From Parcubacteria group bacterium Gr01-1014_8 (GTDB lineage Bacteria; Patescibacteriota; Minisyncoccia; Phycocordibacterales; UBA2100), in the NCBI GenBank assembly GCA_007376385.1, contig VMGC01000001.1, forward strand, positions 32,001 to 96,000: 64,000 nucleotides of DNA. Reading direction: 5' to 3'. The translations under genes and the position numbers were made by a program. Position 1 is the first letter of the stretch, and the number at the start of each line of letters is the position of its first letter. The notes under the pieces were generated by a model. It was not told where the DNA came from. It did not search any database and saw nothing but the letters and a program-made list of their open reading frames with translations. This document shows, piece by piece, positions 3,105 through 35,266 of this stretch.

Positions 3105-4781
3105 TTATGTGACTCTCGTTATATCCACAAGGCGGAGCGCAAGGGAGTTTTGCCCCCTAAATGTATCGTGTACAAGAGTGGCGAGAACATCCGATTCCTG
3201 GCCGGGCTGCGGCGCAAAAGCAAAATCGCTGGGCAATCTGAAAAAATCGAAAGCGCGGGCCGTCACGCCAGTCGCAAAACAGGATAATGTGACCTCTACA
3301 TGATTCTTTTCCTTGCCAAAACTTCGCACTGAACCTATCGAGGCTCGTGGGATGCGAAATATGGGCTTCAGATTCCCCAGTCCAAACGGCGCTAAGCGCG
3401 ATACATCTCTAAAAAGAGGAAATGAGATCTCCGAGAGAGCCACAGTGGCGTCGTACTCGTCGCGTTTTTGGATCGTGGCAGCCTCTATTTGAGCAGCCGC
3501 ATTTTTGAGCACATCGTGCAGAGTGTGTACTGCTTCATGTGAGACAGAAAATCCGCCAGAGCCATGGTGTCCGCCATATTCTTCAAATGAAAGGGCGGCG
3601 CGCGAAAAAAGCTCGACCACCGAAATGCTTCCGTCGGAGCGGCATGAGCCTTTCAACTCCCCTTTCCCATTTCTCCCCCACATGCACACAAGTCCACCAC
3701 GTTCGCCTACTATGGAATTTGCAACAAGCCCGAGAAGCGCTGGTTTCCATTCCACATCTCCGAGAACAATGACTTGATCGGCGGATGAAAACCGCATTGA
3801 GACACGTTTTTTTGCTTCTCTCACTATGGAACCGACTGCGCCTTTTCGACGTGCATTTAATTCTTCAAGGTGCGCGACTAATTTTTCCGCATCCCGCGAG
3901 TTTTTTGCGACGAGAAGTTGAAATGCTGTTTCCGGATCACCCATTCGCGAAGCCGCATTAATGCGCGGCGCAAACGAAAAAGATATATCATCTTCAGTGA
4001 GTTCACTTTGCCGCAGGCGAAGTTGTGCGCATAGCGCACGAATCCCCGGCCTCTGCGTTTTTCGAAGAACCGTAAGCCCAAAATACGCAAGGGTTCGATT
4101 TTCACCTACTAAGGGCACCATATCCGCTATGGTCGCAATGGCGACAAGGTCCAGAAGCCACTTCTCCCAGCCTTCGGGAATTGCCGTAAACGCAGCAAGA
4201 TTGCGTTTACGGCCTTCGGTAAGAAGCGCAGACGCTAATTTCCAGGCAACAGCCGCGCCACAGAGGTCTCGGAATGGATAATTTCCCAGTTTAGGATTTA
4301 TGATCGCAAACGCATCCGGCAATGTTTCTTTTACTTCGTGGTGATCTGTCACAATGACGTCAATACCTCTCTGTTTCGCATGACTCGCTCCCTCATACGC
4401 AACGGTACCTACATCTATCGTAATGATGAGCGATACTCCTTTCTTGGCTAATTTCTCTATCGCATCTGTATGAAAGCCATACCCTTCCATATCCCTGTGC
4501 GGAATATAGACTTCGATGTTCTCGTAGCCGATTTTCGCGAACGTGTCATACAAAACGGCTGCCCCGGGGATCCCATCGCAGTCGAAATCGGCGTATAGAG
4601 TGATCTTTTCTTTATGTTGCATCGCAGATAGGATGCGCCCGATCGCCCTATCCATTTCTTGCAGTGCCATAGGATCATGCGTGTCGCGCACGAAGTCTGG
4701 CTGCAAGAACTTTGCAATGGTCTCTTCATCCGTTATTCCCCGTTTTGTGAGAAGCGTACGCACTAACTCAGAAACTTCCAT
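3105..4781 (-). CDS. recJ: single-stranded-DNA-specific exonuclease RecJ
   Basis: DHH motifs ('LYADFDCDGIPGAAVL', 'IITIDVG', 'VIVTDHH') followed by a DHHA1 region. Length 558 aa. Confidence 0.9.
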   Translation of the reverse strand: MEVSELVRTLLTKRGITDEETIAKFLQPDFVRDTHDPMALQEMDRAIGRILSAMQHKEKITLYADFDCDGIPGAAVLYDTFAKIGYENIEVYIPHRDMEGYGFHTDAIEKLAKKGVSLIITIDVGTVAYEGASHAKQRGIDVIVTDHHEVKETLPDAFAIINPKLGNYPFRDLCGAAVAWKLASALLTEGRKRNLAAFTAIPEGWEKWLLDLVAIATIADMVPLVGENRTLAYFGLTVLRKTQRPGIRALCAQLRLRQSELTEDDISFSFAPRINAASRMGDPETAFQLLVAKNSRDAEKLVAHLEELNARRKGAVGSIVREAKKRVSMRFSSADQVIVLGDVEWKPALLGLVANSIVGERGGLVCMWGRNGKGELKGSCRSDGSISVVELFSRAALSFEEYGGHHGSGGFSVSHEAVHTLHDVLKNAAAQIEAATIQKRDEYDATVALSEISFPLFRDVSRLAPFGLGNLKPIFRIPRASIGSVRSFGKEKNHVEVTLSCFATGVTARAFDFFRLPSDFAFAPQPGQESDVLATLVHDTFRGQNSLALRLVDITRVT

Positions 4782-4811: not shown

Positions 4812-5219
4812 ATGCCCCAATGTCTTTTTTGCAAAATAATTCGCGGCGAAATACCGACAAACAAGGTCTATGAAGATGAGAAAACATTTGCATTTCTTGA
4901 TATCAATCCAGTGAACCCGGGACACACGCTTGTTGTCCCAAAAAAACACGCAGTGGATATCTTTGAGATGGAGGAGGAAGAGTGGAATGCTGTTATGAAC
5001 AGCGTGCACAAAATTTCGCATGCACTCGAGAAATCAATCGGCCCGACTGGCATCAACCTCGCCATGAACAACCGCTCTGGCGCAGGACAGCTCGTATTTC
5101 ATGCGCATGTGCACATTATGCCGCGCTTCCCGAACGACGGCCACGAATTATGGAAAGGGAAACCGTATAGAAAAGGAGAGGCCGCGAGAGTTGCAGAAAA
5201 GATACGCACGAACCTCTAG
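4812..5219 (+). CDS. HIT-family (histidine triad) nucleotide hydrolase
   Basis: 'CLFCKII' at the N-terminus and the HxHxHxx motif 'HAHVHIMPR'. Length 135 aa. Confidence 0.85.
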   Translation: MPQCLFCKIIRGEIPTNKVYEDEKTFAFLDINPVNPGHTLVVPKKHAVDIFEMEEEEWNAVMNSVHKISHALEKSIGPTGINLAMNNRSGAGQLVFHAHVHIMPRFPNDGHELWKGKPYRKGEAARVAEKIRTNL

Positions 5220-5221
5220 CG

Positions 5222-5920
5222 CTAGAAGTATTGATTACACTGCGGTGTCGGGAGCGGAAGACTTTGGACGCACATCCCTGTGTACCATGTTGCTGGTCCA
5301 CCTGGATATGAACGCTGGTATCCGCTGCATCCATGCGTCTGCCAGATCTTACAGTTATACGGCATGTTAGAAGGGTCCGAAGATGACGTTTGCGTCGGTG
5401 CTCCCGCCGGGCAATATGAAGTACACAACCACTGACCTCCCTTGCATTGAAATACAGGCAAAACCGCTGTCCTGTTTGGGCAAATCCCCGATGGAAGACA
5501 CAAACTCACGCCAGTCGAGGCTGTCCAGCCACCTTCTGACGTCATCCCTTCAGCGTATATCTGACCATTATATGTACAGGATGCGCCGGTTGTTGTTTGC
5601 GTTGTTGTCGTTGACGGCTTGCAGGCATAACCAGTCACACAGTTGTACGAGTCGTACGAGACTGTGAGCGCTGTTGAACACGATGGTGGCATGACCAGAG
5701 TGCACCTGTGCGTCTGTGCAACTTGCTTTTGCAGGTTAGCTATCTGCGTTTGCAATTTTGTTATCTCCTGTGTCAATTTCAAGACGAGATCTTTTTGCAA
5801 TTGTATTATCTGCTGGAATAGCGCGATTATCTGCGATTGCAGGTCGGTACTCTCGGCAGCTGACACCATGGGAGCAATGAGAAGGAAGCAAATGCCGATC
5901 GCCGTTAGAAGCTTCGCCAT
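5222..5920 (-). CDS. secreted Cys-rich protein, paralog family member 1 (signal peptide + coiled-coil helix + Cys-rich C-terminus)
   Basis: Start taken at 'MAKLLTAIGICFLLIAPMVSAA', a signal peptide. The long heptad helix 'LQSQIIALFQQIIQLQKDLVLKLTQEITKLQTQIANLQKQV' follows, then roughly 18 cysteines in the C-terminal half. It lacks the PG-binding domain that its neighbours carry. Confidence 0.6.
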   Translation of the reverse strand: MAKLLTAIGICFLLIAPMVSAAESTDLQSQIIALFQQIIQLQKDLVLKLTQEITKLQTQIANLQKQVAQTHRCTLVMPPSCSTALTVSYDSYNCVTGYACKPSTTTTQTTTGASCTYNGQIYAEGMTSEGGWTASTGVSLCLPSGICPNRTAVLPVFQCKGGQWLCTSYCPAGAPTQTSSSDPSNMPYNCKIWQTHGCSGYQRSYPGGPATWYTGMCVQSLPLPTPQCNQYF

Positions 5921-5927
5921 AATTCTG

Positions 5928-7466
5928 CTACGGCGTAATGTTGATATCTTGAGGCGGATAGTAAACACCCGTCACGGTTGGCGGCGTAGCAAGGAGAACA
6001 ATAACATTTCCATATATGTCTGTGGTGAACCACCTGCCCTCGCGGCACATGTACAAATGCTCTGTTTGGAATTGATTTGCGCCCGAGTATGCCCTCTGCC
6101 CATTCGTGAAGACGATCCCATTGGCGCTCACGCAGAGCGAGCCCGTGCCGTACGGAACGTATCCATACTGACTGTCCGAACTCCACATGCCATTTTGACA
6201 GGTGAGTGTCACCGATGATGATCCTGTCAAAAGAGCGCATATATTTTCGTTTGGGAAGTCCCGACATGTCTTACCGTTCCCCCCGGAGGGATACGCAGAG
6301 TCGAACAGATTTGGACCCGGCGGAAGCGTGTACGATTGCCCATTGCCGTACACAGTGCCGTTTATCACACACGAATTTACGTCTCCCGTAAGATACCCTG
6401 AACCGATCGAGGGAATGGCGACCCACGTTCCGCCCATGCACTGCAAGAATGGATAACTTGTGCATGAAGAGCTTGATGATGCAGCGCACGCTGGACTTGC
6501 GGTCACTTCCCCATCAGGGTACGTCTTGCTGTTCAGTTTGCATGAACTCCCTCCGATCCCGATATTCGTAAGGTCCGGATCATTCACCTGAACAGAAAGT
6601 GTCGCGGTCGTATCTGCACCACTCGCGTCTTTGGCAAAAACCACGATCGTGAATTTTCCGGTTGAACTATACGCGTGCGAATAGGAGACGGCTGAGCTGT
6701 ATGGTGTGCCCTCGCGAGAGATGTTCAATAACTGGGAAAGAGAAGAACCCTCATCTCCCCACACAACGCTAAAATTAACCACGTTTCCTTCAGGATCGCT
6801 CCCGCTGACCCTCCATGTATTGCTTTTGTTGATGTCAACGGTTGTGGGACCGACAACGGAAGAAATAATAGGAGGCTTGTTGATGGGCGTTACTGTCGTG
6901 TCGACTGCCGACACACAGGTCCATCCTACATGGCAACCCTTCGGGTCATTGTTCTTTTCCCATGTACCTGTACACGTCAACACTGGCTGCGGTGGCGGTG
7001 TGAGGCACTGATTGCTCGGAGGGGGAGGACGCGTACAGTATGTGCTTATCACATACTGGAACGTTCGAGCTCCAAACACGCCGCCATCCGCCGCCTGTGA
7101 AATAATCCCCACTTTCAGCTGAAATTGAATAAGTCCATTCTCTGTTATTGGCCCGAAAAACCCCGTGATGTCTACACTGAAATATCCCTGACTTTTCAGA
7201 AATAGCTGCAACGCTTCAACATCGCCACCGCTATCGCCGCGTTTCAATGGAAATCGTGATATCGAACAAATAACATTCCCGCCAGCGGGCGGTGCAACCT
7301 CTGTGCTTCCCCCTGCTGCGGCAATTTTTGCTTGCAGCTGTGCGATTTGGGCAAGAAGCACTTCTATCTGCGCTTTTACCTCATCAGCAGTGAGTGCGCT
7401 TGAGATAACTGGAACCAAGATAAGCCCCGCGAGAGATGCGCACAAAGCGCGCTTGAAAGTGCTCAT
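5928..7466 (-). CDS. secreted surface protein, paralog 2: signal peptide + coiled-coil + peptidoglycan-binding-like domain + PKD/Ig-like domain + Cys-rich C-terminus
   Basis: Signal peptide 'LAGLILVPVISSALT'. Helix 'VKAQIEVLLAQIAQLQAKIAAA'. A PG_binding_1-like segment 'LKRGDSGGDVEALQLFLKSQGYFSVDITGFFGPITENGLIQFQ'. An Ig/PKD-like segment 'PPIISSVVGPTTVDINKSNTWRVSGSDPEGNVVNFSVVWGDEGS'. Many cysteines follow. Confidence 0.65.
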   Translation of the reverse strand: MSTFKRALCASLAGLILVPVISSALTADEVKAQIEVLLAQIAQLQAKIAAAGGSTEVAPPAGGNVICSISRFPLKRGDSGGDVEALQLFLKSQGYFSVDITGFFGPITENGLIQFQLKVGIISQAADGGVFGARTFQYVISTYCTRPPPPSNQCLTPPPQPVLTCTGTWEKNNDPKGCHVGWTCVSAVDTTVTPINKPPIISSVVGPTTVDINKSNTWRVSGSDPEGNVVNFSVVWGDEGSSLSQLLNISREGTPYSSAVSYSHAYSSTGKFTIVVFAKDASGADTTATLSVQVNDPDLTNIGIGGSSCKLNSKTYPDGEVTASPACAASSSSSCTSYPFLQCMGGTWVAIPSIGSGYLTGDVNSCVINGTVYGNGQSYTLPPGPNLFDSAYPSGGNGKTCRDFPNENICALLTGSSSVTLTCQNGMWSSDSQYGYVPYGTGSLCVSANGIVFTNGQRAYSGANQFQTEHLYMCREGRWFTTDIYGNVIVLLATPPTVTGVYYPPQDINITP

Positions 7467-7587
7467 TCCATCAATCGTAACGCATAAAACTCATATCTTG
7501 TCCGCATAGTGTGGATTGCAAGCTTACCCCAGCGGTATCTCGTGCGAGAATAGGGTTATTATCCGAATTACTCGTCATTCTTTTTTC

Positions 7588-10449
7588 ATGAAAAAGAAAC
7601 TTATTGTTGGCGTCTTACTTTTTGCGCTTATGCCTATCGCGGTGCTTGCGCAAACGAATGAAGAAAGGATCGCGAGTCTTCTTGCGCAAATAAATGCGCT
7701 CACTGCTCTCCTAGCCCAGATGCAGGGAAACACGCAAACTGCCCCGGCTGCCGGAACGTATGGAATTCTTCGCGGAATTCCATCGCTCGTGCTCACCCGA
7801 AATCTAGGGCCCGGCGATACGGGACCTGACGTATCGCGATTGCAAGCGCACCTCGCACTTGACCCAAATATTTATCCGGAAGGATTAGTGACGGGCGGAT
7901 ATCGCAACCTCACGACTGCTGCCGTCAGACGTTTCCAAATAGCGTGCAATATCATTTCATATGGTGACCCAAACACGACAGGATTTGGACGTGTCGGGCC
8001 GGTGACCAGACGCGCACTTCAGTACGGATGCGCTGGCACTCCAACCCCTATCCTGTATCCAACACCGACTCCTCCGCAATCTTCAATAGCCCCAACGTCG
8101 GGACAACCTCCACTGAACGTCGCGATCACTGCTTCGTTTCCCACCATTTCATGCGACGTCGCGGGCGGAGTGAACCAGATCTACCGGCTACAGCTTGGTG
8201 ATGGCACCTTCCAAGAGCTCTATGTATTCACACAAGGAAGAGTGAGCGGAGAGTGCGGGAGAGTCGTAACGAAAACGGTATACCACTTATATACAAAAAC
8301 CGGGACGCACACCGTCATGTTAGAAGAAATGGGTCCGACAGGGGAAGGAGGGTTCGCCGTTCTTTCATCAAAACAGATAGGAACGGTGCACGTGGGCGGT
8401 ACTGCCACACCAACGCCGCCGCCCGGCACATCATACGGCATCCAAGTGCGCCTCCAGAACGGAACGAGCGCGGTTGCTCGCGGCAACGCACTCCTCATCA
8501 ATTGGGACCCGACTGTCATTATTCCTCCATCAAACGCTGCGGTGCGACTCGAATTGAGGCGCGCATCCGACAACACGCTTGTCGGCGAAGGCGGTATCGT
8601 CAACGACCTTGCGATGAACGGCTCGTATGTGTGGAACGTCCCAGTATTCTCCTCTTCGTGCTCGCTTGGCAATGGCCAGCTGTGTTCCAACCAAATAATC
8701 GACAACCAAGACTACCATATACGCGCTGTGCTGTACCAGCCGCGCGGTTCTTGCTTCGGAACTGCATGCAACAATTCTCCAACAATTCTCGCTACAGGCA
8801 GAACTGATTCATTCACCATCCTGCCCACCGGAAGCGCGACTGGAGGAGCACTGCGCGCTAATCCGTCGTCCGGCTCATCGCCTCTCATGGTTTCGTTCAA
8901 TGCCGATGTAAACGCTACGGGTTCGTGTTCTGCGAGCACCAATTCAATTAACTTTGGAGACGGAAGTCTGTGGGAGAATCTGCAAGTCGCCGCAAATACA
9001 TGCAGGCCGCAGACGTTCGTTGTCAACCACACCTATACAGGAAACGCGACGTACACCGCGAAACTCTACAACGTCGCAAGCTCTTCCGTAACGAACAGCA
9101 CCAATCCGATCCACTCGACCACAATCACCGTTTCTGACGGCAGCGGCGCGGGTGGAATGGGCTCGCTTCTCGTGCACGCAGACGGCAGTGACGGCGCAAC
9201 GTCATTCCCGGATAGTTCATCGACAAACAACACGATCACGCGCAATGGGAACGCCCAAATAGATACTGCTCAATCAAAATTCGGCGGTGCGAGCGCGCTC
9301 TTCGACGGGAGCGGCGATTACCTGTCGGTTCCAGATAGCAGCAACTGGTATTTCGGTACCGGCGACTTCACGGTGGACTTTTGGCTTAGACTTAACGGTT
9401 TAGCGGCAACGAACGGTATATTTGGGCAAGGAAGCGGCAGTAATGCGTACCGAATGTATATCGCGTCAGACGGCAGCGTTGTCTTCCAAGTATGGAACGG
9501 CGGCGTAAACACGATCGTACTCTCCGCAGGAGCAGGCACGTTCTCAACCGGTTCGTGGTATCACCTAGCGCTTGTCCGCAATGGAAATTCATTCGCGCTG
9601 TACAAGAACGGTTCATCGATAGCGAGCGTATCCGACTCGGATGCAATGCCTGATTTCGCAGCGCCATTCACCATCGGCGCGTCGGACGGAACAAGCTTTG
9701 TATTGAACGGATGGATAGATGAATTCCGCGTCGTCAAAGGAAGCGCTGCATGGACATCAAGCTTCTCCGTGCCGACAGCTCCATACGGCAGCAATCCGGT
9801 GGTTGAAGGAAATTCCATCAGCTACAACAGTCCGGGTACATTCACATTCACGACTCCTTCTTCCTACAGTTCCATTACTGTGACGCTCTGGGGTGGAGGA
9901 GGAGGTGGAGGAGGAGGCAACGGTACAGTAGAAGGAAGTGGAGGAAATGGCGCAAACGGCGGTTCATCCACGTTCCAAAGTTTAGCGGCGGCAGGTGGAA
10001 GCGGCGGGAGTGGTGTTGTCGGTGGAGCAGGCGGTACAGCTTCCGGAGGCGATGCAAACACATCAGGAAACTCAGGCGGCAGTGCAAACGGCGTAACGAG
10101 CGGCGCAGGAGGAAGCGCGCCAAATGGCGGCGGAGGGGGGAGCGCGGTTACAAGCGGTAATGGCAATGCAGGCACCGCGCCCGGTGGTGGAGGAGGAGGT
10201 GGAGCATATGCAGGCGGCGGAGGTTCAGGCGGGTATGTACGCAAAACGTACTCATCGGGATCGCTGTCAACTAACTCCTCTGTCTCTCTCGCAGTGGGAA
10301 GTGGTGGTAGTGGAGGAGTAGGGGGTATATGTCATTATGGTGATTTACTCAAAGTCTGCGATCGAAGCGGCGACTGGCCTCCAAGCGGTGGAGATATGGT
10401 CTCTGGTGGCAGCGGCGCATCTGGACGAGTAACGATTACGTGGCAGTAA
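7588..10449 (+). CDS. large secreted surface protein, paralog 3: signal peptide + coiled-coil + PG-binding-like + LamG/concanavalin-like domain + Gly-rich C-terminal tail
   Basis: Start at MKKKLIVGVLLFALMPIAVLA. Helix 'RIASLLAQINALTALLAQMQ'. PG-binding-like segment 'LTRNLGPGDTGPDVSRLQAHLALDPNIYPEGLVTGGYRNLTTAAVRRFQ'. LamG-like segment 'LFDGSGDYLSVPDSSNWYFGTGDFTVDFWLRL...WYHLALVRNGNSFALYKNG...GWIDEFRVV'. The C-terminal roughly 180 aa are more than 50% Gly/Ser/Ala and end '...GRVTITWQ'. Confidence 0.65.
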   Translation: MKKKLIVGVLLFALMPIAVLAQTNEERIASLLAQINALTALLAQMQGNTQTAPAAGTYGILRGIPSLVLTRNLGPGDTGPDVSRLQAHLALDPNIYPEGLVTGGYRNLTTAAVRRFQIACNIISYGDPNTTGFGRVGPVTRRALQYGCAGTPTPILYPTPTPPQSSIAPTSGQPPLNVAITASFPTISCDVAGGVNQIYRLQLGDGTFQELYVFTQGRVSGECGRVVTKTVYHLYTKTGTHTVMLEEMGPTGEGGFAVLSSKQIGTVHVGGTATPTPPPGTSYGIQVRLQNGTSAVARGNALLINWDPTVIIPPSNAAVRLELRRASDNTLVGEGGIVNDLAMNGSYVWNVPVFSSSCSLGNGQLCSNQIIDNQDYHIRAVLYQPRGSCFGTACNNSPTILATGRTDSFTILPTGSATGGALRANPSSGSSPLMVSFNADVNATGSCSASTNSINFGDGSLWENLQVAANTCRPQTFVVNHTYTGNATYTAKLYNVASSSVTNSTNPIHSTTITVSDGSGAGGMGSLLVHADGSDGATSFPDSSSTNNTITRNGNAQIDTAQSKFGGASALFDGSGDYLSVPDSSNWYFGTGDFTVDFWLRLNGLAATNGIFGQGSGSNAYRMYIASDGSVVFQVWNGGVNTIVLSAGAGTFSTGSWYHLALVRNGNSFALYKNGSSIASVSDSDAMPDFAAPFTIGASDGTSFVLNGWIDEFRVVKGSAAWTSSFSVPTAPYGSNPVVEGNSISYNSPGTFTFTTPSSYSSITVTLWGGGGGGGGGNGTVEGSGGNGANGGSSTFQSLAAAGGSGGSGVVGGAGGTASGGDANTSGNSGGSANGVTSGAGGSAPNGGGGGSAVTSGNGNAGTAPGGGGGGGAYAGGGGSGGYVRKTYSSGSLSTNSSVSLAVGSGGSGGVGGICHYGDLLKVCDRSGDWPPSGGDMVSGGSGASGRVTITWQ
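9890..9918 (+). repeat. GGN trinucleotide repeat encoding a poly-Gly run
   Basis: ggggtggaggaggaggtggaggaggaggc encodes 'WGGGGGGGGG'. Further GGN-rich stretches lie at 10125-10141 and 10186-10204. Confidence 0.8.
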
Positions 10450-10464
10450 GAAAGGAATGCCAAA

Positions 10465-10500
10465 AACAAAAACCCGCATGTTCTGCGGGTCTTTGTTTTG
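10465..10500. terminator. bidirectional rho-independent terminator between convergent genes
   Basis: Stem CCCGCA (10473-10478), loop tgttc, stem TGCGGG (10484-10489). It is flanked by AAAAACAAAAA upstream and TCTTTGTTTTG downstream, so it presents a U-tract in both orientations. Confidence 0.6.
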
Positions 10501-10513
10501 CGAGTTACTAATA

Positions 10514-12190
10514 TTACGGACACACGAACTGACAGTTCGGTCCAGTGCGTCCTACCCATGTGCCGTTCGGACATTGCATGGCCTCCTGTGTGCAAGCGGT
10601 ATATATTTCACACTGACCTACGTAGAGAAATGCCGCGCCAGCTGCGTTCATGAAGCAACGATTACTGTATGTCGTCGGACCCGGTGTCGCTAACATGCAT
10701 GCAGGAATGGAATGACGACAGGCCGGCTCCGGCGGTTGACCGCATACCGGCGCATATTCACCGGTGCACGCCATACCGCCAGTCACATTAACCGTTGTTG
10801 AGGTCCTCGCTTCCTGCCCGGAAGCATTTCGCACAACGATCGTCACTGTATACACCCTCGCGAATGAATATGCGTGCGTGAATGTCGTCATTTGTACGAA
10901 CGGGCGTTCTGCCATGGATGCATTTGCAGGGATAGGATACGAGTTCTCGTCGCCCCACCGCACGCTATAGCTTAGCCGCTCATTTTCCGGATCCCATGCA
11001 TTCACATTCCACGTGCCGGTCGTATTCACGACGAGTGTCGTCGGGCCGGAGAAACCGGAAATAACGGGCGGTTTGTTGTTGGGAAATTCATCAAACCATG
11101 CCGTGCAGTACGGTGCTCTGTCGGGAGGAACAGTTCCCGGCGCCGGCGCGCACATCATCGCTACACAAATCGGCTCGCCTCCGGGAAACTCACGGTGGCA
11201 AGAGGTCCCGCATACTTTTCCATCGGTCCAGCGTTTGCACTGCGGATCGTTGGCAGGATCCTGCCAGCCTGCGCGGCACTCGCCTGCGTGCATGAATGAC
11301 GCGCCATCGGCTTCCATCATGCATCTGTTGCTGTATGTCTGTTGGATCGGATTGCACGGTGTCGTTATACAGACAATCGGTTTGGAACCGCACACAGGTT
11401 TATATTCTTTCGTGCACGCGACATCTCCGACATATACCTGGACTTTTCCTATAACTTCCCTGCTTATTGGCGCCATGCAACCTTGGGTTACTCCGCACGG
11501 GTTGCTTGTATGAACCAAGAGCGCCATGTAGGTACCATTGGATGTATACGTATGTGTGTTCGTCCCCGGTCTCTGACACCGATCTGTAGGCGCATAGCAA
11601 TTCGCTGCTGACTCGGTCGAACCATCACCGTACTCGATAATGTAATTATCTGCTGCTGAATGGAATCCGCTGATATTCGTGTAGAAGGTAACAGAAAGAG
11701 GAGCAGCGCCCCGTTGCGGAATAACTCTAAAATTCTCATTGCCCCCGCCGCCGCACCATATTCTGAGACGCTCACGCGACATGGGGCCGAATGCGCCGAT
11801 TGCCTGCACGCCTTCTGCTGCTTGCCACTTTGCCACCGCCTGGGTGGTCATGTGCCCAAAGTAGCCTGTCGCGTTCGCGGACAAATATCCCTGCTCATTC
11901 AAAAACTCCTGCAACGAACGAACGTCATCTCCATTCGTGCCTGTTGTCAAATTTCGAACGAGCACAGAACAGATACGATGCTTTGATGGCATAATCGAAC
12001 CTATAATGGGAGGAACTGGCGGCTGCCCGCGCAGTTCGTTCAGCTGTCTTGTGAGGTCCGCTATCTGGGCCATCAATCGCTGTACCTGGGACTGGAGATC
12101 ATCAACCGTGAGAGCTGAAACCGGCACAATACCGATGGAAAACACGAGCGAAGATGCGATGAGACCTCCTATGAGCGCCTTTTTAACCAT
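10514..12190 (-). CDS. secreted surface protein, paralog 4: signal peptide + coiled-coil + PG-binding-like + PKD-like domains + two Kazal-like Cys modules
   Basis: Start taken at M45 'MVKKALIGGLIASSLVFSIGIVPVSALT'. Helix 'LQSQVQRLMAQIADLTRQLNELRG'. PG-binding-like segment 'LVRNLTTGTNGDDVRSLQEFLNEQGYLSANATGYFGHMTTQAVAKWQ'. PKD-like segments 'APLSVTFYTNIS...YIIEYGDGS' and 'PPVISGFSGPTTLVVNTTGTWNVNAWDPENERLSYSVRWGDENS'. Kazal-like segments 'CTKEYKPVCGS...TYSNRCMMEADGASFMHAGEC' and 'CTGEYAPVCGQ...TYSNRCFMNAAGAAFLYVGQC'. Confidence 0.65.
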   Translation of the reverse strand: MVKKALIGGLIASSLVFSIGIVPVSALTVDDLQSQVQRLMAQIADLTRQLNELRGQPPVPPIIGSIMPSKHRICSVLVRNLTTGTNGDDVRSLQEFLNEQGYLSANATGYFGHMTTQAVAKWQAAEGVQAIGAFGPMSRERLRIWCGGGGNENFRVIPQRGAAPLSVTFYTNISGFHSAADNYIIEYGDGSTESAANCYAPTDRCQRPGTNTHTYTSNGTYMALLVHTSNPCGVTQGCMAPISREVIGKVQVYVGDVACTKEYKPVCGSKPIVCITTPCNPIQQTYSNRCMMEADGASFMHAGECRAGWQDPANDPQCKRWTDGKVCGTSCHREFPGGEPICVAMMCAPAPGTVPPDRAPYCTAWFDEFPNNKPPVISGFSGPTTLVVNTTGTWNVNAWDPENERLSYSVRWGDENSYPIPANASMAERPFVQMTTFTHAYSFARVYTVTIVVRNASGQEARTSTTVNVTGGMACTGEYAPVCGQPPEPACRHSIPACMLATPGPTTYSNRCFMNAAGAAFLYVGQCEIYTACTQEAMQCPNGTWVGRTGPNCQFVCP

Positions 12191-12360
12191 ACGAGAGAAA
12201 GAGTGATAAATAATGCCGTAATCATAACAGTTCTGTATGTGTAGACGCGCGTGGGGACATTCCCTTACGGACGGCGTAGAGCGAGCAAAATACAACAAAG
12301 AACTTTTGTATGTTCGAGCCAAGGAGTCCGAACCCTGTCATGTAACGCAGGATTACAGGG

Positions 12361-13737
12361 CTAGAATGTCAGATCTTCCGCCCAATTTGTGTGCGCGCAA
12401 TGTAAATTAATCGCCGTGTCCTCTTGTGCCATCGCACAAACCCCGGGGGCGCCAGCAAAATCTTTACAGATGAGCGAACCGGCTGTTGTTTTGACGGTTT
12501 TGGTTGACATGTGAGAACCACAGGACGAACCAACGAGAGCCATGTAGGTTTGCAATCCCGCCATAGTTGGATTGCTAGCTGGCGGGTAATGTGTCACACA
12601 ATTTGCGCCGGCGGCATCGCATCGATACCATTTGCCGATTACACATTTCAATGTTGGAACTGACATCGGCACACTGCCTTTGAAATACGGATCCGGAGAA
12701 ACGGTATTGCCGCTCGGTACGAGCTTGCTCCCCCAGGGAGTGATGCAGTACGTTACTCCTTCCGGAACAAATATGAGCGAACCCTCCTCGGGAACATCGC
12801 CGTCTGGAGCGGGCGGCTCTGAAATACATCCAGCCCCGCATGCAGGGTCAGAAGCGGCCACGACTTTCACTGTCACTGTTCCCTCTGCCTCTCCTCCCGA
12901 CATATCTCGCACTTTTACCGTAATAATATACGAACCCGTTGAGTAATACGTGTGCGTGAACGAACTTACGGACGAAAATACGCCTTCTCCTGCGAGTTTT
13001 TCGAGCGCATTAAGCGTTGAATTAGCTTCGCCCCATGATACGTGGAATGTGAGGCCGTCGCCATCCGGGTCAGTCGCTTTGATGGCCCATTTTCTCTCTA
13101 TTCCCGCCGCTATTGACGATGGCCCGCTGATATCATGAAGAACCGGCGGACGATTCGGCCCCTTTTGCGGTGCCGCACATTTCCAGGACGCGTTGCAGTT
13201 TTCGTCGTGTACTAATTCCCATTTTACACCGCAGCTTGCCGTCGGCGTTGTTGTCGCTACCGCAGGACAAACTGGCGTAGGCGTTGGAAGGAAAACGGGC
13301 TTCGGTGATAATTTTGCAAGGCATCTCTCCAGGATCTTCGCCCGTGTCCTAGGTCCCACAACGCCCCATCCGTTGAGACTCGGACTACCAAGCCACACGA
13401 TCCCGACATGTGCCTGCCAGTCTTGCACGGCTCTTTCTGTCAGCATCCCAAAAAAACCTGTTATCTCGACATTGAACACGCCTTCTTTTTTTAAGAAATC
13501 TTGCAAGGTCTTGACGTCATCCCCTTGAGATCCTCTCGTCAACGTTCGTGTAAATACCGGACATTGTGTTGCCGAAGGAGGAGCAGCTGGATCTTTAAGC
13601 TGATTTTGCAACAGAGCGATCTGCCCGAGCAATGCCTCTACTTGCGCCTGCATCTCCGGCACCGTGAGCGCCGCAGACACAAACGGAGAAGTGAGACACA
13701 CTGCAGCGACCCCGACAACAAAGGACAAAACACGCAT
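12361..13737 (-). CDS. secreted surface protein, paralog 5: signal peptide + coiled-coil + PG-binding-like + Ig/PKD-like + Cys-rich C-terminus
   Basis: Start at M9 'MRVLSFVVGVAAVCLTSPFVSAALT'. Helix 'MQAQVEALLGQIALLQNQLK'. PG-binding-like segment 'LTRGSQGDDVKTLQDFLKKEGVFNVEITGFFGMLTERAVQDWQ'. Ig-like segment 'PPVLHDISGPSSIAAGIERKWAIKATDPDGDGLTFHVSWGEANS'. Cysteine-rich tail. Confidence 0.65.
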   Translation of the reverse strand: MRVLSFVVGVAAVCLTSPFVSAALTVPEMQAQVEALLGQIALLQNQLKDPAAPPSATQCPVFTRTLTRGSQGDDVKTLQDFLKKEGVFNVEITGFFGMLTERAVQDWQAHVGIVWLGSPSLNGWGVVGPRTRAKILERCLAKLSPKPVFLPTPTPVCPAVATTTPTASCGVKWELVHDENCNASWKCAAPQKGPNRPPVLHDISGPSSIAAGIERKWAIKATDPDGDGLTFHVSWGEANSTLNALEKLAGEGVFSSVSSFTHTYYSTGSYIITVKVRDMSGGEAEGTVTVKVVAASDPACGAGCISEPPAPDGDVPEEGSLIFVPEGVTYCITPWGSKLVPSGNTVSPDPYFKGSVPMSVPTLKCVIGKWYRCDAAGANCVTHYPPASNPTMAGLQTYMALVGSSCGSHMSTKTVKTTAGSLICKDFAGAPGVCAMAQEDTAINLHCAHTNWAEDLTF

Positions 13738-13757
13738 GCATACAGTATGACTTCTCA

Positions 13758-14477
13758 TCAAATAGATTTTTTCCTTGCTGTGGATACGCGCGCGGCAAGC
13801 GCTAGTTCTGCGTACGGAATATCATCGGGACTCGTAATATGAAGTCGGAATGAGATCTCGACAGCAGTTAATGGAATTTTGAATGCCTTTGATGCAGCTA
13901 ACATTGTCTGCGGCAAGCCGTACTCCGTACGACCTTCTAAGAGCACTGGTTCTATTTCGAAAATGCGCGTATCAAGAACGTACAGCCCGACGCCCCCTAC
14001 ACCAGGCCCCCTCGTGTGCTTATCGGCCTCGATGATCTCCGTGATAGTGCCATTGGCATCGATATGCACGCTTGATGACATGTCTAATTCGGGCATGTGC
14101 ATTACGGCGAGAGCCCATTCTTGCTCAATACATTTTCTAACGTCTTCTTTTGTATGAATATCGTCCGCATTGGTCGCAAGAAATTTTCCTTTCAGAATTC
14201 CCTTTGCCTGCAAAAGTGCATCCATAGTTCCCCCCACGGGATTCTCTTGCTCAACGTACGTAATTTTCCTTCCGTTATAGGAATTGCCAAATTGCGCTCG
14301 TATCAATTCTTGCAAGTATCCGACGATGAGTATGACCTCGTCAACTTGATCAGGCAACGCATCAAATTTGTGCTCCAAAAGTGTCTTTCCAGATACTCGA
14401 AGGAGCGGCTTTGGGATATTTTTTGTTTTCTCCCCCATCCGAGTACCCCGACCGGCAGCGAGAATGACAGCCTGCAT
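13758..14477 (-). CDS. sugar-phosphate nucleotidyltransferase (NTP_transferase family)
   Basis: 'MQAVILAAGRGTRMGEKTKNIPKPLL' is the G-x-G-T-R nucleotide-binding signature of glucose-1-phosphate nucleotidyltransferases. Length 239 aa. Confidence 0.75.
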   Translation of the reverse strand: MQAVILAAGRGTRMGEKTKNIPKPLLRVSGKTLLEHKFDALPDQVDEVILIVGYLQELIRAQFGNSYNGRKITYVEQENPVGGTMDALLQAKGILKGKFLATNADDIHTKEDVRKCIEQEWALAVMHMPELDMSSSVHIDANGTITEIIEADKHTRGPGVGGVGLYVLDTRIFEIEPVLLEGRTEYGLPQTMLAASKAFKIPLTAVEISFRLHITSPDDIPYAELALAARVSTARKKSI

Positions 14478-14612
14478 ACGTACAGTCTATCCGAGTGCTT
14501 CAATTGCAGGAAGCATTCCTTTCCCCGCATCGACCTTTGGCTTGGCCAAAAATCCTAAATATTTTCGATATCGTTGACAAGACATAGCTGGTTCATGGGG
14601 CAGGCATTTATC

Positions 14613-15752
14613 TCAACCAAGCGCCTCAATAGCAGGCAGAGTACCCTTGAGCAAGTATTCCAACATCGCTCCACCTCCAGTCGAAAGAAAACCCAAATTC
14701 TCTTGTTTTATGCCGGCACCCTCTATTGCTGCTATGGTATCTCCCCCACCTATCACAACTGATGCTCCATCCGCAAATCTTTTCGCCGTTAACGCCGCAA
14801 CAGCGTGTGTCCACGACGTGTAGCCGTCCTCATACAATCCCGTAGGCCCATTCCAGAGAATGAAATTAGCTTTCTCGATGTATGGAGCAATAAGCGCGAG
14901 AGAATCGGGTCCGATATCAACGATTTTGTCGCCATCCTCGACTTGTTCAGGTTTTTTTGTTTGCGCCTGACCATCTTCTCGTTCGACAACGACATCAACC
15001 GGGGCAAGAAAACCAGGATGACTCAAAACTTCTTTTTCGGGCAATTGCGCTGAAATCCGAGACCGCCCAACCGGCAAGCCTCGCGCCTTGAATACATCGT
15101 TGGCAAGCGCTCCGGTAATGAATACATGATCGTATGTCTGCAGAAGTAACTTGATGAGAGGAGCCTTCGTTTCAAATTTTGCCCCCCCGAGAATCGCAAA
15201 CGATGGTCTTGTCGGCGTGCGAGCCTTCCTCAGAACTTCCAATTCCTCTTCGACAAGAAGCCCCGCATATGAGGGCATGAATTTCGGAACGCTGACGAGC
15301 GACGCATGCACACGGTGGTCGACGGCAAACGAGTCGTTCACATATATGTCAGCAAGAGATGCAAGTTCCTTTGCAAGCGACTCGTCGTTCTTTTTTTCGC
15401 GCGGATCACGGCGAATATTCTCAAGAAGGAGCACGTCTCCTTCCTTCATCTCCGCGATCGCTTCGCGAGCCGCATTACCAACAATATCTGGAACATAAAA
15501 TAAAGAAAAATGTTTCTTCATTGCACGGGCAACCGGTGCCATCGAATCTTCAATATCATTGCCAATATGAGAAAGCAAGATGACTTTCGCACCTTTTTCC
15601 GAAAGGTATTGGATCGTCTGCCATCCGCGCTTTGCACGAAAAAGATTGGAGACCTCGCCCGCTGCATCAAGCGGAAGGTTAAGATCTGTGCGCACCAAAA
15701 CGCGCTTTCCTTTCAATTCGCCCTGAGGAATATCGTTGACGGTTTTCATCAT
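14613..15752 (-). CDS. pgk: phosphoglycerate kinase
   Basis: 'KRVLVRTDLNLP', 'AILGGAKFETK', 'VIGGGDTIAA' and 'STGGGAMLEYL' are all present. Length 379 aa. Confidence 0.95.
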   Translation of the reverse strand: MMKTVNDIPQGELKGKRVLVRTDLNLPLDAAGEVSNLFRAKRGWQTIQYLSEKGAKVILLSHIGNDIEDSMAPVARAMKKHFSLFYVPDIVGNAAREAIAEMKEGDVLLLENIRRDPREKKNDESLAKELASLADIYVNDSFAVDHRVHASLVSVPKFMPSYAGLLVEEELEVLRKARTPTRPSFAILGGAKFETKAPLIKLLLQTYDHVFITGALANDVFKARGLPVGRSRISAQLPEKEVLSHPGFLAPVDVVVEREDGQAQTKKPEQVEDGDKIVDIGPDSLALIAPYIEKANFILWNGPTGLYEDGYTSWTHAVAALTAKRFADGASVVIGGGDTIAAIEGAGIKQENLGFLSTGGGAMLEYLLKGTLPAIEALG

Positions 15753-16501
15753 GAATTTCCAACTGCTTGTAATAGATGCGCAAATTCTACCGCGTTGATG
15801 CTGGCGCGCCCCACAAGAAGTCCGTGAACATCACCATCTTGAAGCATCGCTCCGGCGTTCGTGGCATCAATGGAACCCCCGTAAAGAATTTTCATCTTAT
15901 GTCCCTCTTGCCCGTATGAATCCACGATGGTTTTTCTGATGAAAATCGACATTTCGTGCATGCTGCGCGGGTCCATTGTTTTATCCGTACCGATCGTCCA
16001 GAGCGGTTCGTACACAATGACCACTTTTCCCAATTTTATGGCAGGGACATCAGTGAACGCAACGCGGATCTGTTCGGCAATAAGCGGAAAATAATCGCCG
16101 CTTGCAGTTCTCTTGGTTTCCCCGACGCACAGAACCGGTATGAGACCGTTTGCAAGCGCAGCGCCGACTTTCTGTCTCGTATCGTCATTTGTTTCTCCTC
16201 GTGCCCGTCGTTCCGCATGCCCGATAAGTACGTACCCCGCTTTTGCATCACGCACTTGTTGTATCGAAATCTCTCCCGTATGTGCCCCGCCTTCCTCAAA
16301 ATGTGCGTGCTGAGCAGCAAAGAGAATACGCCGCGAGCGTGATAAACGCCTCAATTCTCGCAAAAAAAGAGACGGCGGAGCTACGACAAGGGATACATTG
16401 GCTTTTTCTGCGGATTTCTTGGTCGCTTCGAGCAGCAATTTTGCTTCGCGAAACGTCGGTGGGTTCATCTTCCAATTCGCGATCACCAGACACTTCGACA
16501 T
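15749..16501 (-). CDS. tpiA: triosephosphate isomerase
   Basis: 'LVIANWKMN', 'GHAERR', 'VIVYEPLWTIGTDKT' and 'ILYGGSI' are present. Start taken at internal M38; the ORF extends further upstream. There is a 4-nt overlap with pgk. Confidence 0.9.
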   Translation of the reverse strand: MSKCLVIANWKMNPPTFREAKLLLEATKKSAEKANVSLVVAPPSLFLRELRRLSRSRRILFAAQHAHFEEGGAHTGEISIQQVRDAKAGYVLIGHAERRARGETNDDTRQKVGAALANGLIPVLCVGETKRTASGDYFPLIAEQIRVAFTDVPAIKLGKVVIVYEPLWTIGTDKTMDPRSMHEMSIFIRKTIVDSYGQEGHKMKILYGGSIDATNAGAMLQDGDVHGLLVGRASINAVEFAHLLQAVGNS

Positions 16502-16683
16502 GCGAAGGATTGTAGCATGCGACACTTCACTTACTTCGCTACGTGACATGAGTTCGAAAGGGGCCGGGAAAACTACAGTTTTCCCGTCGAGAAGAGCAGC
16601 GAGTCCGCACATGTGGCGGACGGGCGTTGAGAACCTTCGGTTCTCAATGTGAAATTCCGCAGGTAAATCCGTGGAATTTTACA

Positions 16684-17604
16684 TTATCCCCCGAAAAGTA
16701 TGGTATCCGATATTGTGCGTGTTTTTTGCTTCAAAAACTCAGCTACAGCTGTGAAGAGAATTGCCTGCACGTCCTCTGCACCTGCAGTAAGAGCGGACAA
16801 TTCTTTGTCAACGACCCCGTCTATTTCTGCTGCAAGAGAGCGCGCTGAAAAGTATTTCCGTATGAAAAAACGGTACCACGGAAGACGTACTCGAACTCTC
16901 TCCTCTGATGTCGCGGCTGCACCCACCACCTCTACCCGCACTGGGAACGAGAACGGGATAATAGCAAACAACGCGCCGCGACTGCGATATGTGATCTCAA
17001 ATCGGGATGCGGAGAGAGCGGCTTTCTCAAGCTGCGCGTCGTCGCCCGCAAGTTCTGCTGCAATGAGCGCATAGTACTGGCCAGTTGATAACTTGCCGCC
17101 ATCAATTTTTTCCTTCGCGCGGCCCCTCAATCCTTTCCAAAATTTCAAGATATCGCGTATGTCAGCATTGCCTTGTATCGCCGCCCGGACTTTTTTTCCG
17201 TCGATGGTTACGCTAAAACCGCCTATCGTTCCTCCGCCAATTTTATACTCGTCGCCTGAATCAGTGACCGTGATCGCCCCTTGCTCTACGAGCGTGTTCA
17301 CTACATCCCCTTCCGTCTCGACGATCGGGCCTGGCAGAGGAGACTCCGGGTTACTTTGTGAGTTTTCTTCAGTTTGCTCTTTCTGGTCGATCGGTGTCTC
17401 AGGCAGAGGTTCTTCGTCCGGATTTTGGTTCAGATTCTGTGTTGCACTCCCGCTTCCGGCGGGAACTTCGCTGGTAAGGTCGAGGATTTCTCCTTTTTTC
17501 AAAAAATATTGGTCATTGAACTGGTCCGCAGAAGCGACGCCTGCATTGAATATCAAAAAAAGAAGTAAAAAACAAAAAAATACCCGCATAAAATGCTGTA
17601 GCAT
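16684..17604 (-). CDS. secreted hypothetical protein (last gene of the pilus operon)
   Basis: Start taken at 'MLQHFMRVFFCFLLLFLIFNAGVASA', a signal peptide. An acidic, Pro-rich linker follows. I recognise no known domain. Confidence 0.5.
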   Translation of the reverse strand: MLQHFMRVFFCFLLLFLIFNAGVASADQFNDQYFLKKGEILDLTSEVPAGSGSATQNLNQNPDEEPLPETPIDQKEQTEENSQSNPESPLPGPIVETEGDVVNTLVEQGAITVTDSGDEYKIGGGTIGGFSVTIDGKKVRAAIQGNADIRDILKFWKGLRGRAKEKIDGGKLSTGQYYALIAAELAGDDAQLEKAALSASRFEITYRSRGALFAIIPFSFPVRVEVVGAAATSEERVRVRLPWYRFFIRKYFSARSLAAEIDGVVDKELSALTAGAEDVQAILFTAVAEFLKQKTRTISDTILFGG

Positions 17605-17615
17605 GCGCGAAAATC

Positions 17616-19112: not shown

Positions 19113-19115
19113 AGT

Positions 19116-19700
19116 CTATTTCAAGTTCCTAAGCGCCGCGGTCGAGCGAAGTGTTAATTGGTTCGGCAACCGATTTGGATCAACGTTCACAATAACGTTC
19201 ATGGTAATGAAACGCACATACGCTATCTGAGCAAAATTTGTTATCTCTGCACCGTTCATATCGTAGTATTGGAATGTCGTTGTCGCTTGCTCGATGTTAC
19301 GAACTGTCTCAGAAATTACCGATGTCGTTTGGGCTGCACCGTACACAGGAGGATCACCCGTGGGGTCTGTTACGTCACGAAGCAATGAAATGCCTTGCAC
19401 ATAGTATCGCACTCTCTCAATAAGCGGATCTGAATCGATGTCAGCGTAAAACGTAACCTCCTGGGGGCCAACCGCGGCAACAGGATATGCGCCATTTGAC
19501 GCATAGGATATCTCTCGCATCGTTTTCACCATCTCTTCGATGCCGCGCTGCGCTGCATTTACAGCGCTTGCTTGTTCTATAACGTATGTATTCGTGCGAT
19601 AGAAGTAAAGTACCGATGAAACAATGGCGAGCATCGCGAACGTAAAGACAGTAATGGATACCAACACTTCAATAAATGTGATGCCGCGTGAGTAGTTCAT
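19116..19700 (-). CDS. type IV pilin-like protein (prepilin N-terminal cleavage/methylation motif)
   Basis: 'MNYSRG|ITFIEVLVSITVFTFAMLAIV' is a class III signal peptide with a Gly cleavage site and Glu at +5. Length 194 aa. Confidence 0.75.
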   Translation of the reverse strand: MNYSRGITFIEVLVSITVFTFAMLAIVSSVLYFYRTNTYVIEQASAVNAAQRGIEEMVKTMREISYASNGAYPVAAVGPQEVTFYADIDSDPLIERVRYYVQGISLLRDVTDPTGDPPVYGAAQTTSVISETVRNIEQATTTFQYYDMNGAEITNFAQIAYVRFITMNVIVNVDPNRLPNQLTLRSTAALRNLK

Positions 19701-19701
19701 A

Positions 19702-21906: not shown

Positions 21907-21908
21907 AT

Positions 21909-23126: not shown

Positions 23127-23199
23127 TCATTCGATTATACCGTCTAAGCAACAGAAAGAAGCGCGTGCTGTACACAATCGCTCACTGTCACAACATGGA

Positions 23200-35033: not shown

Positions 35034-35060
35034 CAAAAACCCGCGCAGCGGGTTTTTGTG
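35034..35060 (+). terminator. rho-independent terminator after hup
   Basis: AAACCCGCGCAGCGGGTTT hairpin followed by TTGTGTG. Confidence 0.7.
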
Positions 35061-35189
35061 TGGGTCAAAGATTTCGTGTAAAGTGTCTCGATACACTCAC
35101 GTGTGCGAGCACGCGACTGGACAATGACCGCCGAAGCGCGCTCTTTTGTGGGCTTGAAGCCCTCTGTTGTTCAGGCTATGGTGGGCAGC

Positions 35190-35260
35190 GCGGGATTCGT
35201 TTAATGGTAGGACATCAGTTTTCCAAACTGAGGACGGGAGTTCGATTCTCCCATCCCGCA
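35190..35260 (+). tRNA. tRNA-Gly (anticodon TCC), no encoded CCA
   Basis: Manual cloverleaf fold. Acceptor GCGGGAT/ATCCCGC. Anticodon stem TCAGT/ACTGA with loop TTTCCAA. T-arm GGGAG-TTCGATT-CTCCC. Discriminator A. Length 71 nt. Confidence 0.85.
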
Positions 35261-35266
35261 CAAAGT

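Follow-up and report, generated by a model that had tools for sequence, protein, structure and literature searches.

Five neighbouring genes fill a variable slot in the genome of Parcubacteria group bacterium Gr01-1014_8, an uncultured groundwater bacterium represented by a Kaiserbacteria-like metagenome-assembled genome. They reside at 5222-13737 of a stretch of 64,000 nucleotides (assembly GCA_007376385.1, contig VMGC01000001.1, positions 32,001 to 96,000), called here the window, and their products are called P1 to P5. The group is best read as a lineage-specific expansion of Sec-exported surface proteins sitting on the cell's own peptidoglycan, in which a common N-terminal cassette carries variable C-terminal cargo, a protease inhibitor in the case of P4; we give this reading, taken as a whole, a probability of about 0.6. 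A secreted, wall-anchored and diversifying surface family had been proposed in a first-pass annotation of the same DNA. It is the simplest reading because the shared module includes a genuine peptidoglycan-binding (PG-binding) domain, and the signal-peptide features and a copy number ranging from 0 to 5 among relatives are in keeping with it.

The cassette would be made, in order, of a cleavable signal peptide, a three-heptad Leu/Gln helix, a flexible Gly/Ser/Thr/Pro linker and a PG_binding_1 domain. Leaders would be cleaved by signal peptidase I upon export through Sec, and the mature proteins are probably held non-covalently on the peptidoglycan of the producing cell by the PG_binding_1 three-helix bundle, displaying their cargo on Ig/PKD spacers. 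The helix would most likely form a short parallel coiled coil (a dimer being favoured, a trimer possible), and would thereby make a weak PG-binding domain multivalent. P4 would expose two non-classical Kazal heads and a pacifastin-derived Cys module, protecting the surface from serine proteases; P5 and P2 carry PKD and orphan Cys-rich modules, P3 PKD, a lectin-like LamG domain and a Gly-rich tail. P1, predicted to consist of a long coiled coil and Cys-rich modules, could join the other members by helix pairing.

Signal peptides, helix and PG-binding domain

The five genes are intact open reading frames (ORFs), arranged as follows.

5222-5920, - strand: P1, 232 aa
5928-7466, - strand: P2, 512 aa
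7588-10449, + strand: P3, 953 aa, the sole member on this strand
10514-12190, - strand: P4, 558 aa, conserved core gene; like P5, identical at 100% to a protein of Gr01-1014_8
12361-13737, - strand: P5, 458 aa, 100% identical to G01um10148_42 of Parcubacteria group bacterium Gr01-1014_8

Their adjacency and boundaries are as first annotated, and the start codons chosen match those of orthologues. The array had also been described as tandem, which is not strictly so, P3 being divergent from P2 (121-bp gap) and convergent with P4 (64-bp gap).

Sec-type leaders were recognized in all five proteins by heuristic rules. Each features an n-region with K/R residues and an uncharged h plus c stretch of 19–25 residues (mean Kyte-Doolittle value about 2), and a small-x-small motif in the c-region (VSA, SSA, VLA, VSA and VSA in P1 to P5, respectively); by these features all are predicted to be cleaved by signal peptidase I. 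No lipobox Cys was found by the same check in any of the five leaders, and no transmembrane segment, lipobox or C-terminal sorting motif in any of the five proteins. The signal peptide is followed in all by a Leu/Gln heptad helix, as had been noted, and the helix begins 2–6 residues past the predicted cleavage site. Heptads have beta-branched residues (V/I) at position a and L at position d in all five helices, which measure three heptads in P2–P5 and about seven (about 46 aa) in P1. Core-hydrophobic residues make up 0.86–1.00 of the a/d positions in P2–P5, 0.69 in P1. The motif is canonical in P2, P4 and P5, diverged in P1 and P3.

5858-5920, - strand: signal peptide of P1
5714-5851, - strand: helix of P1
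7395-7466, - strand: signal peptide of P2
7314-7388, - strand: helix of P2
7588-7650, + strand: signal peptide of P3
7657-7725, + strand: helix of P3, divergent
12113-12190, - strand: signal peptide of P4
12029-12106, - strand: helix of P4
13672-13737, - strand: signal peptide of P5
13594-13665, - strand: helix of P5

A helix profile made from 130 database proteins, and including no sequence of the window, was scored on the 492 six-frame ORFs of the window. The five ORFs rank at the top (P2 31.6 bits, P4 28.9, P5 25.3, P1 11.7 with E 0.004, P3 10.7), and the next one scores 0.9 bits. Since they are ranked first by an independent profile, the succession of five motif genes in a row is not a coincidence. 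The helix could not be assigned to a named family in the first-pass annotation, and this holds: no Pfam or NCBIfam model reaches its cut-off on it, sub-threshold likeness being limited to Lpp/OprI, FtsL and GspM.

PG-binding domains score above the cut-off of PG_binding_1 (PF01471, 23 bits) in P2 (32.0 bits), P4 (41.7) and P5 (35.3), and a weaker copy has been located in P3.

7035-7277, - strand: PG-binding domain of P2
7795-8037, + strand: PG-binding domain of P3, weak
11753-11974, - strand: PG-binding domain of P4
13321-13563, - strand: PG-binding domain of P5

Residues 77-142 of P4 match PG-binding domains of known structure, from an L,D-transpeptidase-family (ErfK/YbiS/YcfS/YnhG) protein, endolysins and SleB, and in PHROGs the domain matches endolysin wall-binding domains. 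In P2, P4 and P5 the domain has one Cys immediately in front of it and another immediately behind. Within the P4 family C146 never varies and C74 hardly does. The bracketing pair suggests a disulfide clamp.

The N-modules of P2, P3, P4 and P5 are 30–37% identical, that of P3 aligning with the others at E 1e-9 to 1e-15, and P2 and P5 are related along their whole length (29.6% identity over 456 aa, E 3e-52). P1 seems only marginally a paralogue, being related through the helix and through a weak similarity of its Cys-rich part to residues 306–385 of P2 (E 2e-4); the description of all five as paralogues is thus sound for P2–P5 and marginal for P1. Recent duplication and gene conversion were considered and rejected. 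DNA identity is not extended, the best matches between paralogues measuring 34–63 nt at 71–76%, and the genes are therefore old duplicates, not recent copies or gene-conversion tracts.

The spread of the cassette was surveyed by an exhaustive search of 1.84 billion representatives, using a profile that runs from the signal peptide through the helix into the start of the PG-binding domain (about 20 positions of the latter). Matches were found in 3,262 protein clusters at E <= 1e-3, 598 at E <= 1e-10, and sit nearly always at residues 1–90. The helix consensus is T-[VTA]-[AED]-[ED]-L-Q-A-Q-I-x-A-L-L-A-Q-I-x-x-L-Q-A-Q-L-G-G; among top matches e/g is almost always Gln and f almost always Ala, variation being confined to b/c. 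PG_binding_1 is present in 56 of 61 long matches, followed by 500–1,300 residues mostly devoid of Pfam domains. Many cassette proteins are large (600–1,450 aa) and otherwise unannotated, and in other genomes too cassette genes adjoin further PG-binding proteins. Named sources are Parcubacteria, Pacebacteria, Harrisonbacteria and Kaiserbacteria, a range that rests on a handful of source names. A word-indexed search with the alignment of signal peptide and helix returned 11 short fragments only, the motif being present elsewhere. The helix is therefore no peculiarity of this locus; it is a very common but unnamed motif of Parcubacteria.

AlphaFold2 models the P4 helix as an isolated element (residues 29-54, predicted local distance difference test score, pLDDT, 78–86), separated by a linker (pLDDT <50) from the PG-binding domain (pLDDT 96), and the P2 helix is likewise isolated at residues 27-51. 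P4 (mean pLDDT 82.8) is modelled as beads on a string. This isolation fits a helix that does not oligomerise at all and is instead a passive spacer, an export or sorting element, or a unit packing laterally in an S-layer-like lattice. So do the conservation of e, f and g, which exceeds that of a generic heptad, the constant location at the mature N-terminus, the shortness of three heptads, and the many large unannotated cassette proteins, since S-layer proteins are often of this kind. Yet I/V at a and L at d form the classical core of coiled coils, the apparent conservation is inflated by the profile's own selection of top matches, none of the loci examined shows a co-occurring partner gene, and in P1 the heptad is continued to about seven repeats, as expected of a true coiled coil. 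A non-oligomerising role is accordingly held to be rather unlikely, and a short coiled coil is preferred; judged by the Harbury rules, a core of Ile/Val (a) and Leu (d) would point, if anything, to a dimer.

Cargo modules and the P4 family

The regions found after the helix, or after the PG-binding domain, differ from member to member.

5225-5704, - strand: P1, Cys-rich region after the helix, 15 Cys, no PG-binding domain
5931-6542, - strand: P2, Cys-rich tail, three C-x-x-N-G-x-x-Y...C-x-x-G-x-W modules
6582-6881, - strand: P2, PKD
6915-7007, - strand: P2, 4-Cys linker
8080-9117, + strand: P3, PKD/Ig region
9304-9738, + strand: P3, Laminin_G_3
9829-10446, + strand: P3, glycine-rich tail
10517-10594, - strand: P4, C-terminal 4-Cys mini-domain
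10610-10768, - strand: P4, Kazal head 2, loop CTGEYAPVCG
10781-11077, - strand: P4, PKD2
11105-11239, - strand: P4, divergent pacifastin-like Cys module, between the Kazal heads
11276-11416, - strand: P4, Kazal head 1, loop CTKEYKPVCG
11429-11731, - strand: P4, PKD1
12364-12840, - strand: P5, orphan Cys-rich tail
12862-13155, - strand: P5, PKD
13177-13269, - strand: P5, 4-Cys linker

PKD domains were scored against PKD_4 (PF18911, cut-off 27 bits) and PKD (PF00801, cut-off 23.5 bits). P4 matches PKD_4 at 34.2 bits and P3 PKD at 25.9 bits (sub-sequence, residues 165-570). P5 reaches 25.7 bits with PKD_4, just below the cut-off, and 24.0 bits with Big_9, above its cut-off of 23.6; P2 scores 23.1 bits, below the cut-off. 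In Foldseek comparisons the P4 model matches the PKD domains of the collagenases ColG/ColH with a template modelling score of 0.83.

Residues 573-717 of P3 match Laminin_G_3 (PF13385) at 79.6 bits, the cut-off being 27.6. With Gly_rich_2 (PF21722) P3 scores 18.1 bits as a whole protein and 20.8 bits as tail alone, below the cut-off of 24.3, and the match covers only the first 48 of 226 profile positions. PKD domains occur in P2–P5. PKD and LamG were correctly annotated among the C-terminal modules at the first pass, and two further assignments, the poly-Gly tail as judged by Gly_rich_2 and the Kazal modules of P4 as judged by Kazal_1, are sub-threshold. PHROGs comparisons liken the LamG domain of P3 to those of phage baseplate and virion structural proteins, at up to 134 bits, and 13 viral contigs have LamG domains resembling it as well; the glycine-rich tail of P3 takes no part in these matches. 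A horizontal or phage origin of the array has no support, as PHROGs matches involve only generic PG-binding and LamG domains and the viral contigs match LamG only.

The Cys-rich tails of P1, P2 and P5 have in common a loose version of the C-x-x-N-G-x-x-Y...C-x-x-G-x-W module and the 4-Cys linker. When isolated tails were searched against Pfam at E <= 5 no family was found, except for a meaningless Fn1_2 hint at E 0.18; a VWC/Fn1-like look of the modules was set aside as an impression without Pfam match. The AlphaFold2 model of P2, based on a 10-row alignment, has a mean pLDDT of 56, falling to 30–45 in the Cys-rich tail, to which no fold is assignable.

P4 belongs to a large and well-conserved family. 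At least 430 matches were found, mostly named Kaiserbacteria, and the top 119 after P4's own entry are 36–62% identical to P4. When the whole P4 model is compared with the PDB by Foldseek, PKD and multi-Ig matches dominate and Kazal modules, 45 residues long, are unresolvable; Kazal and pacifastin modules were compared with the PDB by sequence profiles, not by whole-model Foldseek. The Kazal-module profile retrieved 59 PDB sequences, mostly Kazal inhibitors; a few are Streptomyces subtilisin inhibitor (SSI) sequences, among the weakest matches. The best match is Galleria silk protease inhibitor 2 (SPI2, E 6e-9), followed by ovomucoid, infestin, rhodniin, LDTI and SPINK1.

The P4 loop, C-T-[P1]-E-Y-x-P-V-C-G, matches C-T-L-E-Y-R-P-L-C-G of the ovomucoid third domain OMTKY3 (here, P1 in the loop denotes the reactive-site residue, not the protein). 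In the register to this domain (profile positions 3-35 to chain positions 15-35) the residue after C-T is the P1 residue, which in OMTKY3 is Leu18. Head 1 carries C-T-K-E-Y-x-P-V-C-G ('TKEY') in 98 of the 119 family members, and in view of the ovomucoid register and of the conserved TKEY loop its P1 residue is Lys. In head 2 the same position is hypervariable (M, L, A, Q, G, T, F, K, R); a variable P1 residue is usual for Kazal inhibitors. Kazal modules of the P4 family are devoid of the Cys1-Cys5 disulfide, a feature found also in SPI2 (PDB 2m5x/4hgu), and have an extra Cys pair within a 12-residue insert. They differ from known Kazal inhibitors in being bacterial, attached to a PG-binding cassette and interleaved with PKD domains, and in having the insert and its Cys pair between PVCG and TYSN. 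Kazal_1 (PF00050, MEROPS I1; cut-off 21 bits) scores 21–35 bits in 9/9 relatives scanned.

The middle module was searched for the pacifastin Cys pattern C-x(9-12)-C-N-x-C-x-C-x(2-3)-G-x(3-6)-C-T-x3-C, one canonical Cys of which is missing in the family. Against the PDB its profile matched pacifastins in 9/9 cases, the best E being only 0.008, and the alignment spans A-C-T-L-[RK]-A-C. Most middle modules of the P4 family match C-N-x-C-...-G-...-A-C-T-L-[RK]-A-C of the pacifastins PMP-C/LCMI-II and SGPI-1/2, reactive-site motif included, and differ from them by the replacement of one canonical Cys. With Pacifastin_I (PF05375, cut-off 27.9) three relatives (P0072, P0142, P0144) score 29.5, 34.4 and 29.7 bits, and others 15–25. 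The model thus exceeds its gathering cut-off in bacterial proteins of Kaiserbacteria type. To our knowledge, pacifastins are regarded as arthropod-specific. Nothing linking Kazal or pacifastin domains with Patescibacteria was found in the literature searched.

Together these features suggest that the P4 family may be a peptidoglycan-tethered, multi-headed serine-protease inhibitor. The Kazal-like modules reported at the first pass are upheld by profile homology; new are the canonical reactive-site loop and the recognition of P4 as a conserved gene of a large Kaiserbacteria family.

Own wall or host wall, and comparison with known systems

Some observations weigh against parts of the explanation given above. 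P3 scores 17.0 bits with PG_binding_1, below the cut-off of 23, and P1 has no match; the first count of four PG-binding proteins out of five holds for P2, P4 and P5 on their scores, and for P3 by homology. The association of helix and PG-binding domain, as the conservation among top hits, is overstated by the cassette profile, because the profile overlaps the PG-binding domain and selects the top hits itself. Three heptads are short for a stable coiled coil. The cargo of P1, P2 and P5 has no assignable fold, as judged by the Pfam searches on the three tails and by the AlphaFold2 model of P2. P4 of the window scores 16.1 bits with Kazal_1, where 21 would be needed, and has a middle module of divergent subtype (PICVAMMC) that gave no pacifastin match; Kazal-like domains occur in non-inhibitory proteins too. 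Last, it could be a host's wall, rather than the producer's, to which the PG-binding domain binds.

In the latter case the proteins would be host-directed adhesins or effectors, gripping the host cell wall and being either released or held otherwise. In cultured Paceibacteria, genes for secreted proteins with PG-binding, Ig and PKD domains rank among the most strongly expressed of those with a signal peptide; the proteins have been proposed to be surface or host-interaction proteins and read as host-attachment factors (PMC10936435). Both LamG and PKD are domains typical of adhesins and phage receptor-binding proteins, and the copy number varies between relatives. The hosts in that study are however archaea, which have no murein (PMC10936435). 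Moreover the five proteins lack a second anchor on the producer (transmembrane segment, lipobox and sortase signal are all absent), conserved N-terminal cassettes with varying C-termini are the usual layout of anchor and cargo, and a protease inhibitor as cargo suits self-protection better than adhesion. Attachment to a host wall is consequently regarded as unlikely, and attachment to the cell's own peptidoglycan as the better explanation.

Ca. Paceibacteria (Yanofskyibacterium, Minisyncoccaceae), the organisms of the same study, belong to the same class and, by description, have the same kind of secreted PG-binding and Ig/PKD proteins as those analyzed here; an N-terminal helix motif, arrays and inhibitor cargo are not described there (PMC10936435). 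The PG_binding_1 modules of endolysins, SleB, L,D-transpeptidases and Zn D-Ala-D-Ala carboxypeptidase are the same three-helix bundle and serve non-catalytic wall targeting. Unlike these enzymes, the members of the array have no hydrolase, and feature a preceding helix, the Cys pair (P2, P4, P5), and Ig/PKD domains with inhibitor or lectin-like cargo.

Lpp and OprI resemble the array in that a signal peptide is directly followed by a short coiled coil, a putative one in the array, linking to peptidoglycan, and two cassette proteins are automatically named 'murein-binding lipoprotein Lpp' in IMG. The Lpp/OprI models NF040598 and NF011925 score 16.1 bits (cut-off 43) and 17.6 bits (cut-off 108), respectively. 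In contrast to Lpp/OprI, the array proteins have neither lipobox or lipid anchor nor C-terminal Lys attachment, end in unrelated C-termini, carry a separate PG_binding_1 domain, and come from a presumably monoderm organism. The SLH, LysM and CWB2 proteins of monoderms follow the same logic of a conserved anchor with variable cargo, often in paralogous clusters, but their anchor has another fold and no obligatory preceding helix. SLH repeats are trimers within one chain, whereas multivalency in the array would need oligomerisation.

Little is known of how bacteria of the Candidate Phyla Radiation, which are abundant and mostly uncultured, build and decorate their surface. A display cassette of Parcubacteria-wide occurrence with helix-driven avidity, together with a first bacterial wall-tethered Kazal/pacifastin inhibitor, is a joint claim which we put forward only tentatively. 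If true, the cassette would be a functional counterpart of SLH, LysM or Lpp, used by thousands of unannotated surface proteins; protease/anti-protease conflict would take place at the surface of ultra-small, probably host-dependent bacteria; and a fold supposed to be restricted to arthropods, that of pacifastins, would occur in bacteria. Being recognizable from sequence, the cassette could be used to list surface proteins from Parcubacteria genomes, and could serve as display tag. For the P4 family a concrete function can be hypothesized for a gene conserved in position across Kaiserbacteria, and the copy number of the slot, 0–5, marks a site of lineage-specific surface variation, where specificity for host or environment would be expected to evolve. 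Surface proteins with PG-binding domains were already known; the unnamed, abundant helix cassette and the conserved Kazal/pacifastin-type family are the two features that stand out. This changes no paradigm, and refines a previously unannotated locus.

The pgk-HIT slot and other features of the window

The array resides between pgk and a HIT-family gene, in a backbone (type IV pilus operon, tpiA, pgk, slot, HIT, RecJ, DUF975) conserved in relatives in which PGK is 82% to 43% identical. A comparison of synteny, advised at the first pass as a check on number and turnover of paralogues, gave the following slot contents.

L003: empty; the contig starts at pgk, followed by HIT-RecJ
L004: one unrelated 526-aa protein; pilus-tpiA-pgk-HIT-RecJ backbone kept
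L001, L002, L036, L038: a single P4 orthologue
L037 (GCA_022842645.1; 8704-13310): P5 orthologue, P4 orthologue, third cassette protein
This window: five members, the largest expansion among the loci examined

These contents make P4 the ancestral occupant of the slot, and P5, P2, P3 and P1 older, diverged additions specific to the lineage. The expansion is at least partly shared or recurrent, since L037 has a three-member array in the same slot; its P5 orthologue is 32% identical to P5 (E 9e-73). P5 has 32 database matches only, the next best after its own entry being 30% identical. In L001, the closest relative (13355-15281, 17669-17863), RecJ is seemingly a 40-residue remnant followed by two unrelated genes, and one more ORF with a signal peptide and an LQAQ helix is cut off by the end of the contig.

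The flanks of the array in the window are as follows; on the HIT side DUF975 lies beyond HIT and RecJ.

3105-4781, - strand: RecJ, conserved, far border of the variable slot
4812-5219, + strand: HIT-family protein, conserved, far border of the variable slot
10472-10490, + strand: terminator-like hairpin, within the 64 bp that separate the stop codons of the convergent P3 and P4 genes; consensus match only
13758-14477, - strand: NTP-transferase, between array and pilus operon, not a family member
14613-15752, - strand: phosphoglycerate kinase (pgk), between array and pilus operon, not a family member
15749-16612, - strand: triosephosphate isomerase (tpiA), between array and pilus operon, not a family member
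16684-24939, - strand: type IV pilus operon (two conserved ORFs without Pfam match, pilin, CarboxypepD_reg protein, PilC, PilB)
19116-19700, - strand: N_methyl pilin
21909-23126, - strand: PilC
23200-24939, - strand: PilB

The array had been placed directly beside the pilus operon, and its products made candidates for attachment on that ground. Neither step is supported: 2.9 kb and three housekeeping genes (NTP-transferase, pgk and tpiA, 13758-16612) separate P5 from the start of the operon, and proximity results from the conserved synteny of the backbone. That the five proteins work with the pilus, as tip adhesins or assembly factors, is very improbable: P4-family genes do lie a few kb from the operon in L001, L002, L036, L037 and L038, and the PKD part weakly matches NF058578 CPR_pilus_PamR, but tpiA and pgk are always in between, usually along with NTP-transferase, a class III (N_methyl) leader is absent from all five proteins, L004 keeps the backbone with an unrelated gene in the slot, and L003 has pgk-HIT-RecJ with an empty one. 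A relationship to the Pam pilus, which is a different pilus, was rejected, as the PamR matches score 13–49 bits against a cut-off of 300 and concern the Ig/PKD part only.

The two pilus-operon ORFs devoid of any Pfam match (16684-19112, - strand; 358 and 498 aa) are likely uncharacterised pilus components. Counterparts of the 498-aa ORF were found in L001, L002 and L004, of the 358-aa ORF only in L001. In a scan of the region for promoters and terminators the number of sites was at chance level, and only the hairpin between P3 and P4 is noteworthy. From about 0.49 on either side, the G+C content rises to 0.547–0.548 at 8001-12000, where the coding of P3 and P4 is Gly/Pro-rich.

Elsewhere in the window, a tyrosine recombinase of 739 aa (48139-50358, - strand) features Phage_integrase and an N-terminal SAM-like domain, and is split by a LAGLIDADG homing-endonuclease intein. 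An extracytoplasmic function (ECF)-type sigma factor is followed at 29523-31300 (+ strand) by a DUF5667 protein, with overlapping stop and start codons; the two are probably a sigma/anti-sigma pair. The longest ORF of a trypsin-like peptidase (35060-36442, + strand) overlaps tRNA-Gly(tcc) at 35190-35261, and the true start of the peptidase is therefore located further downstream.

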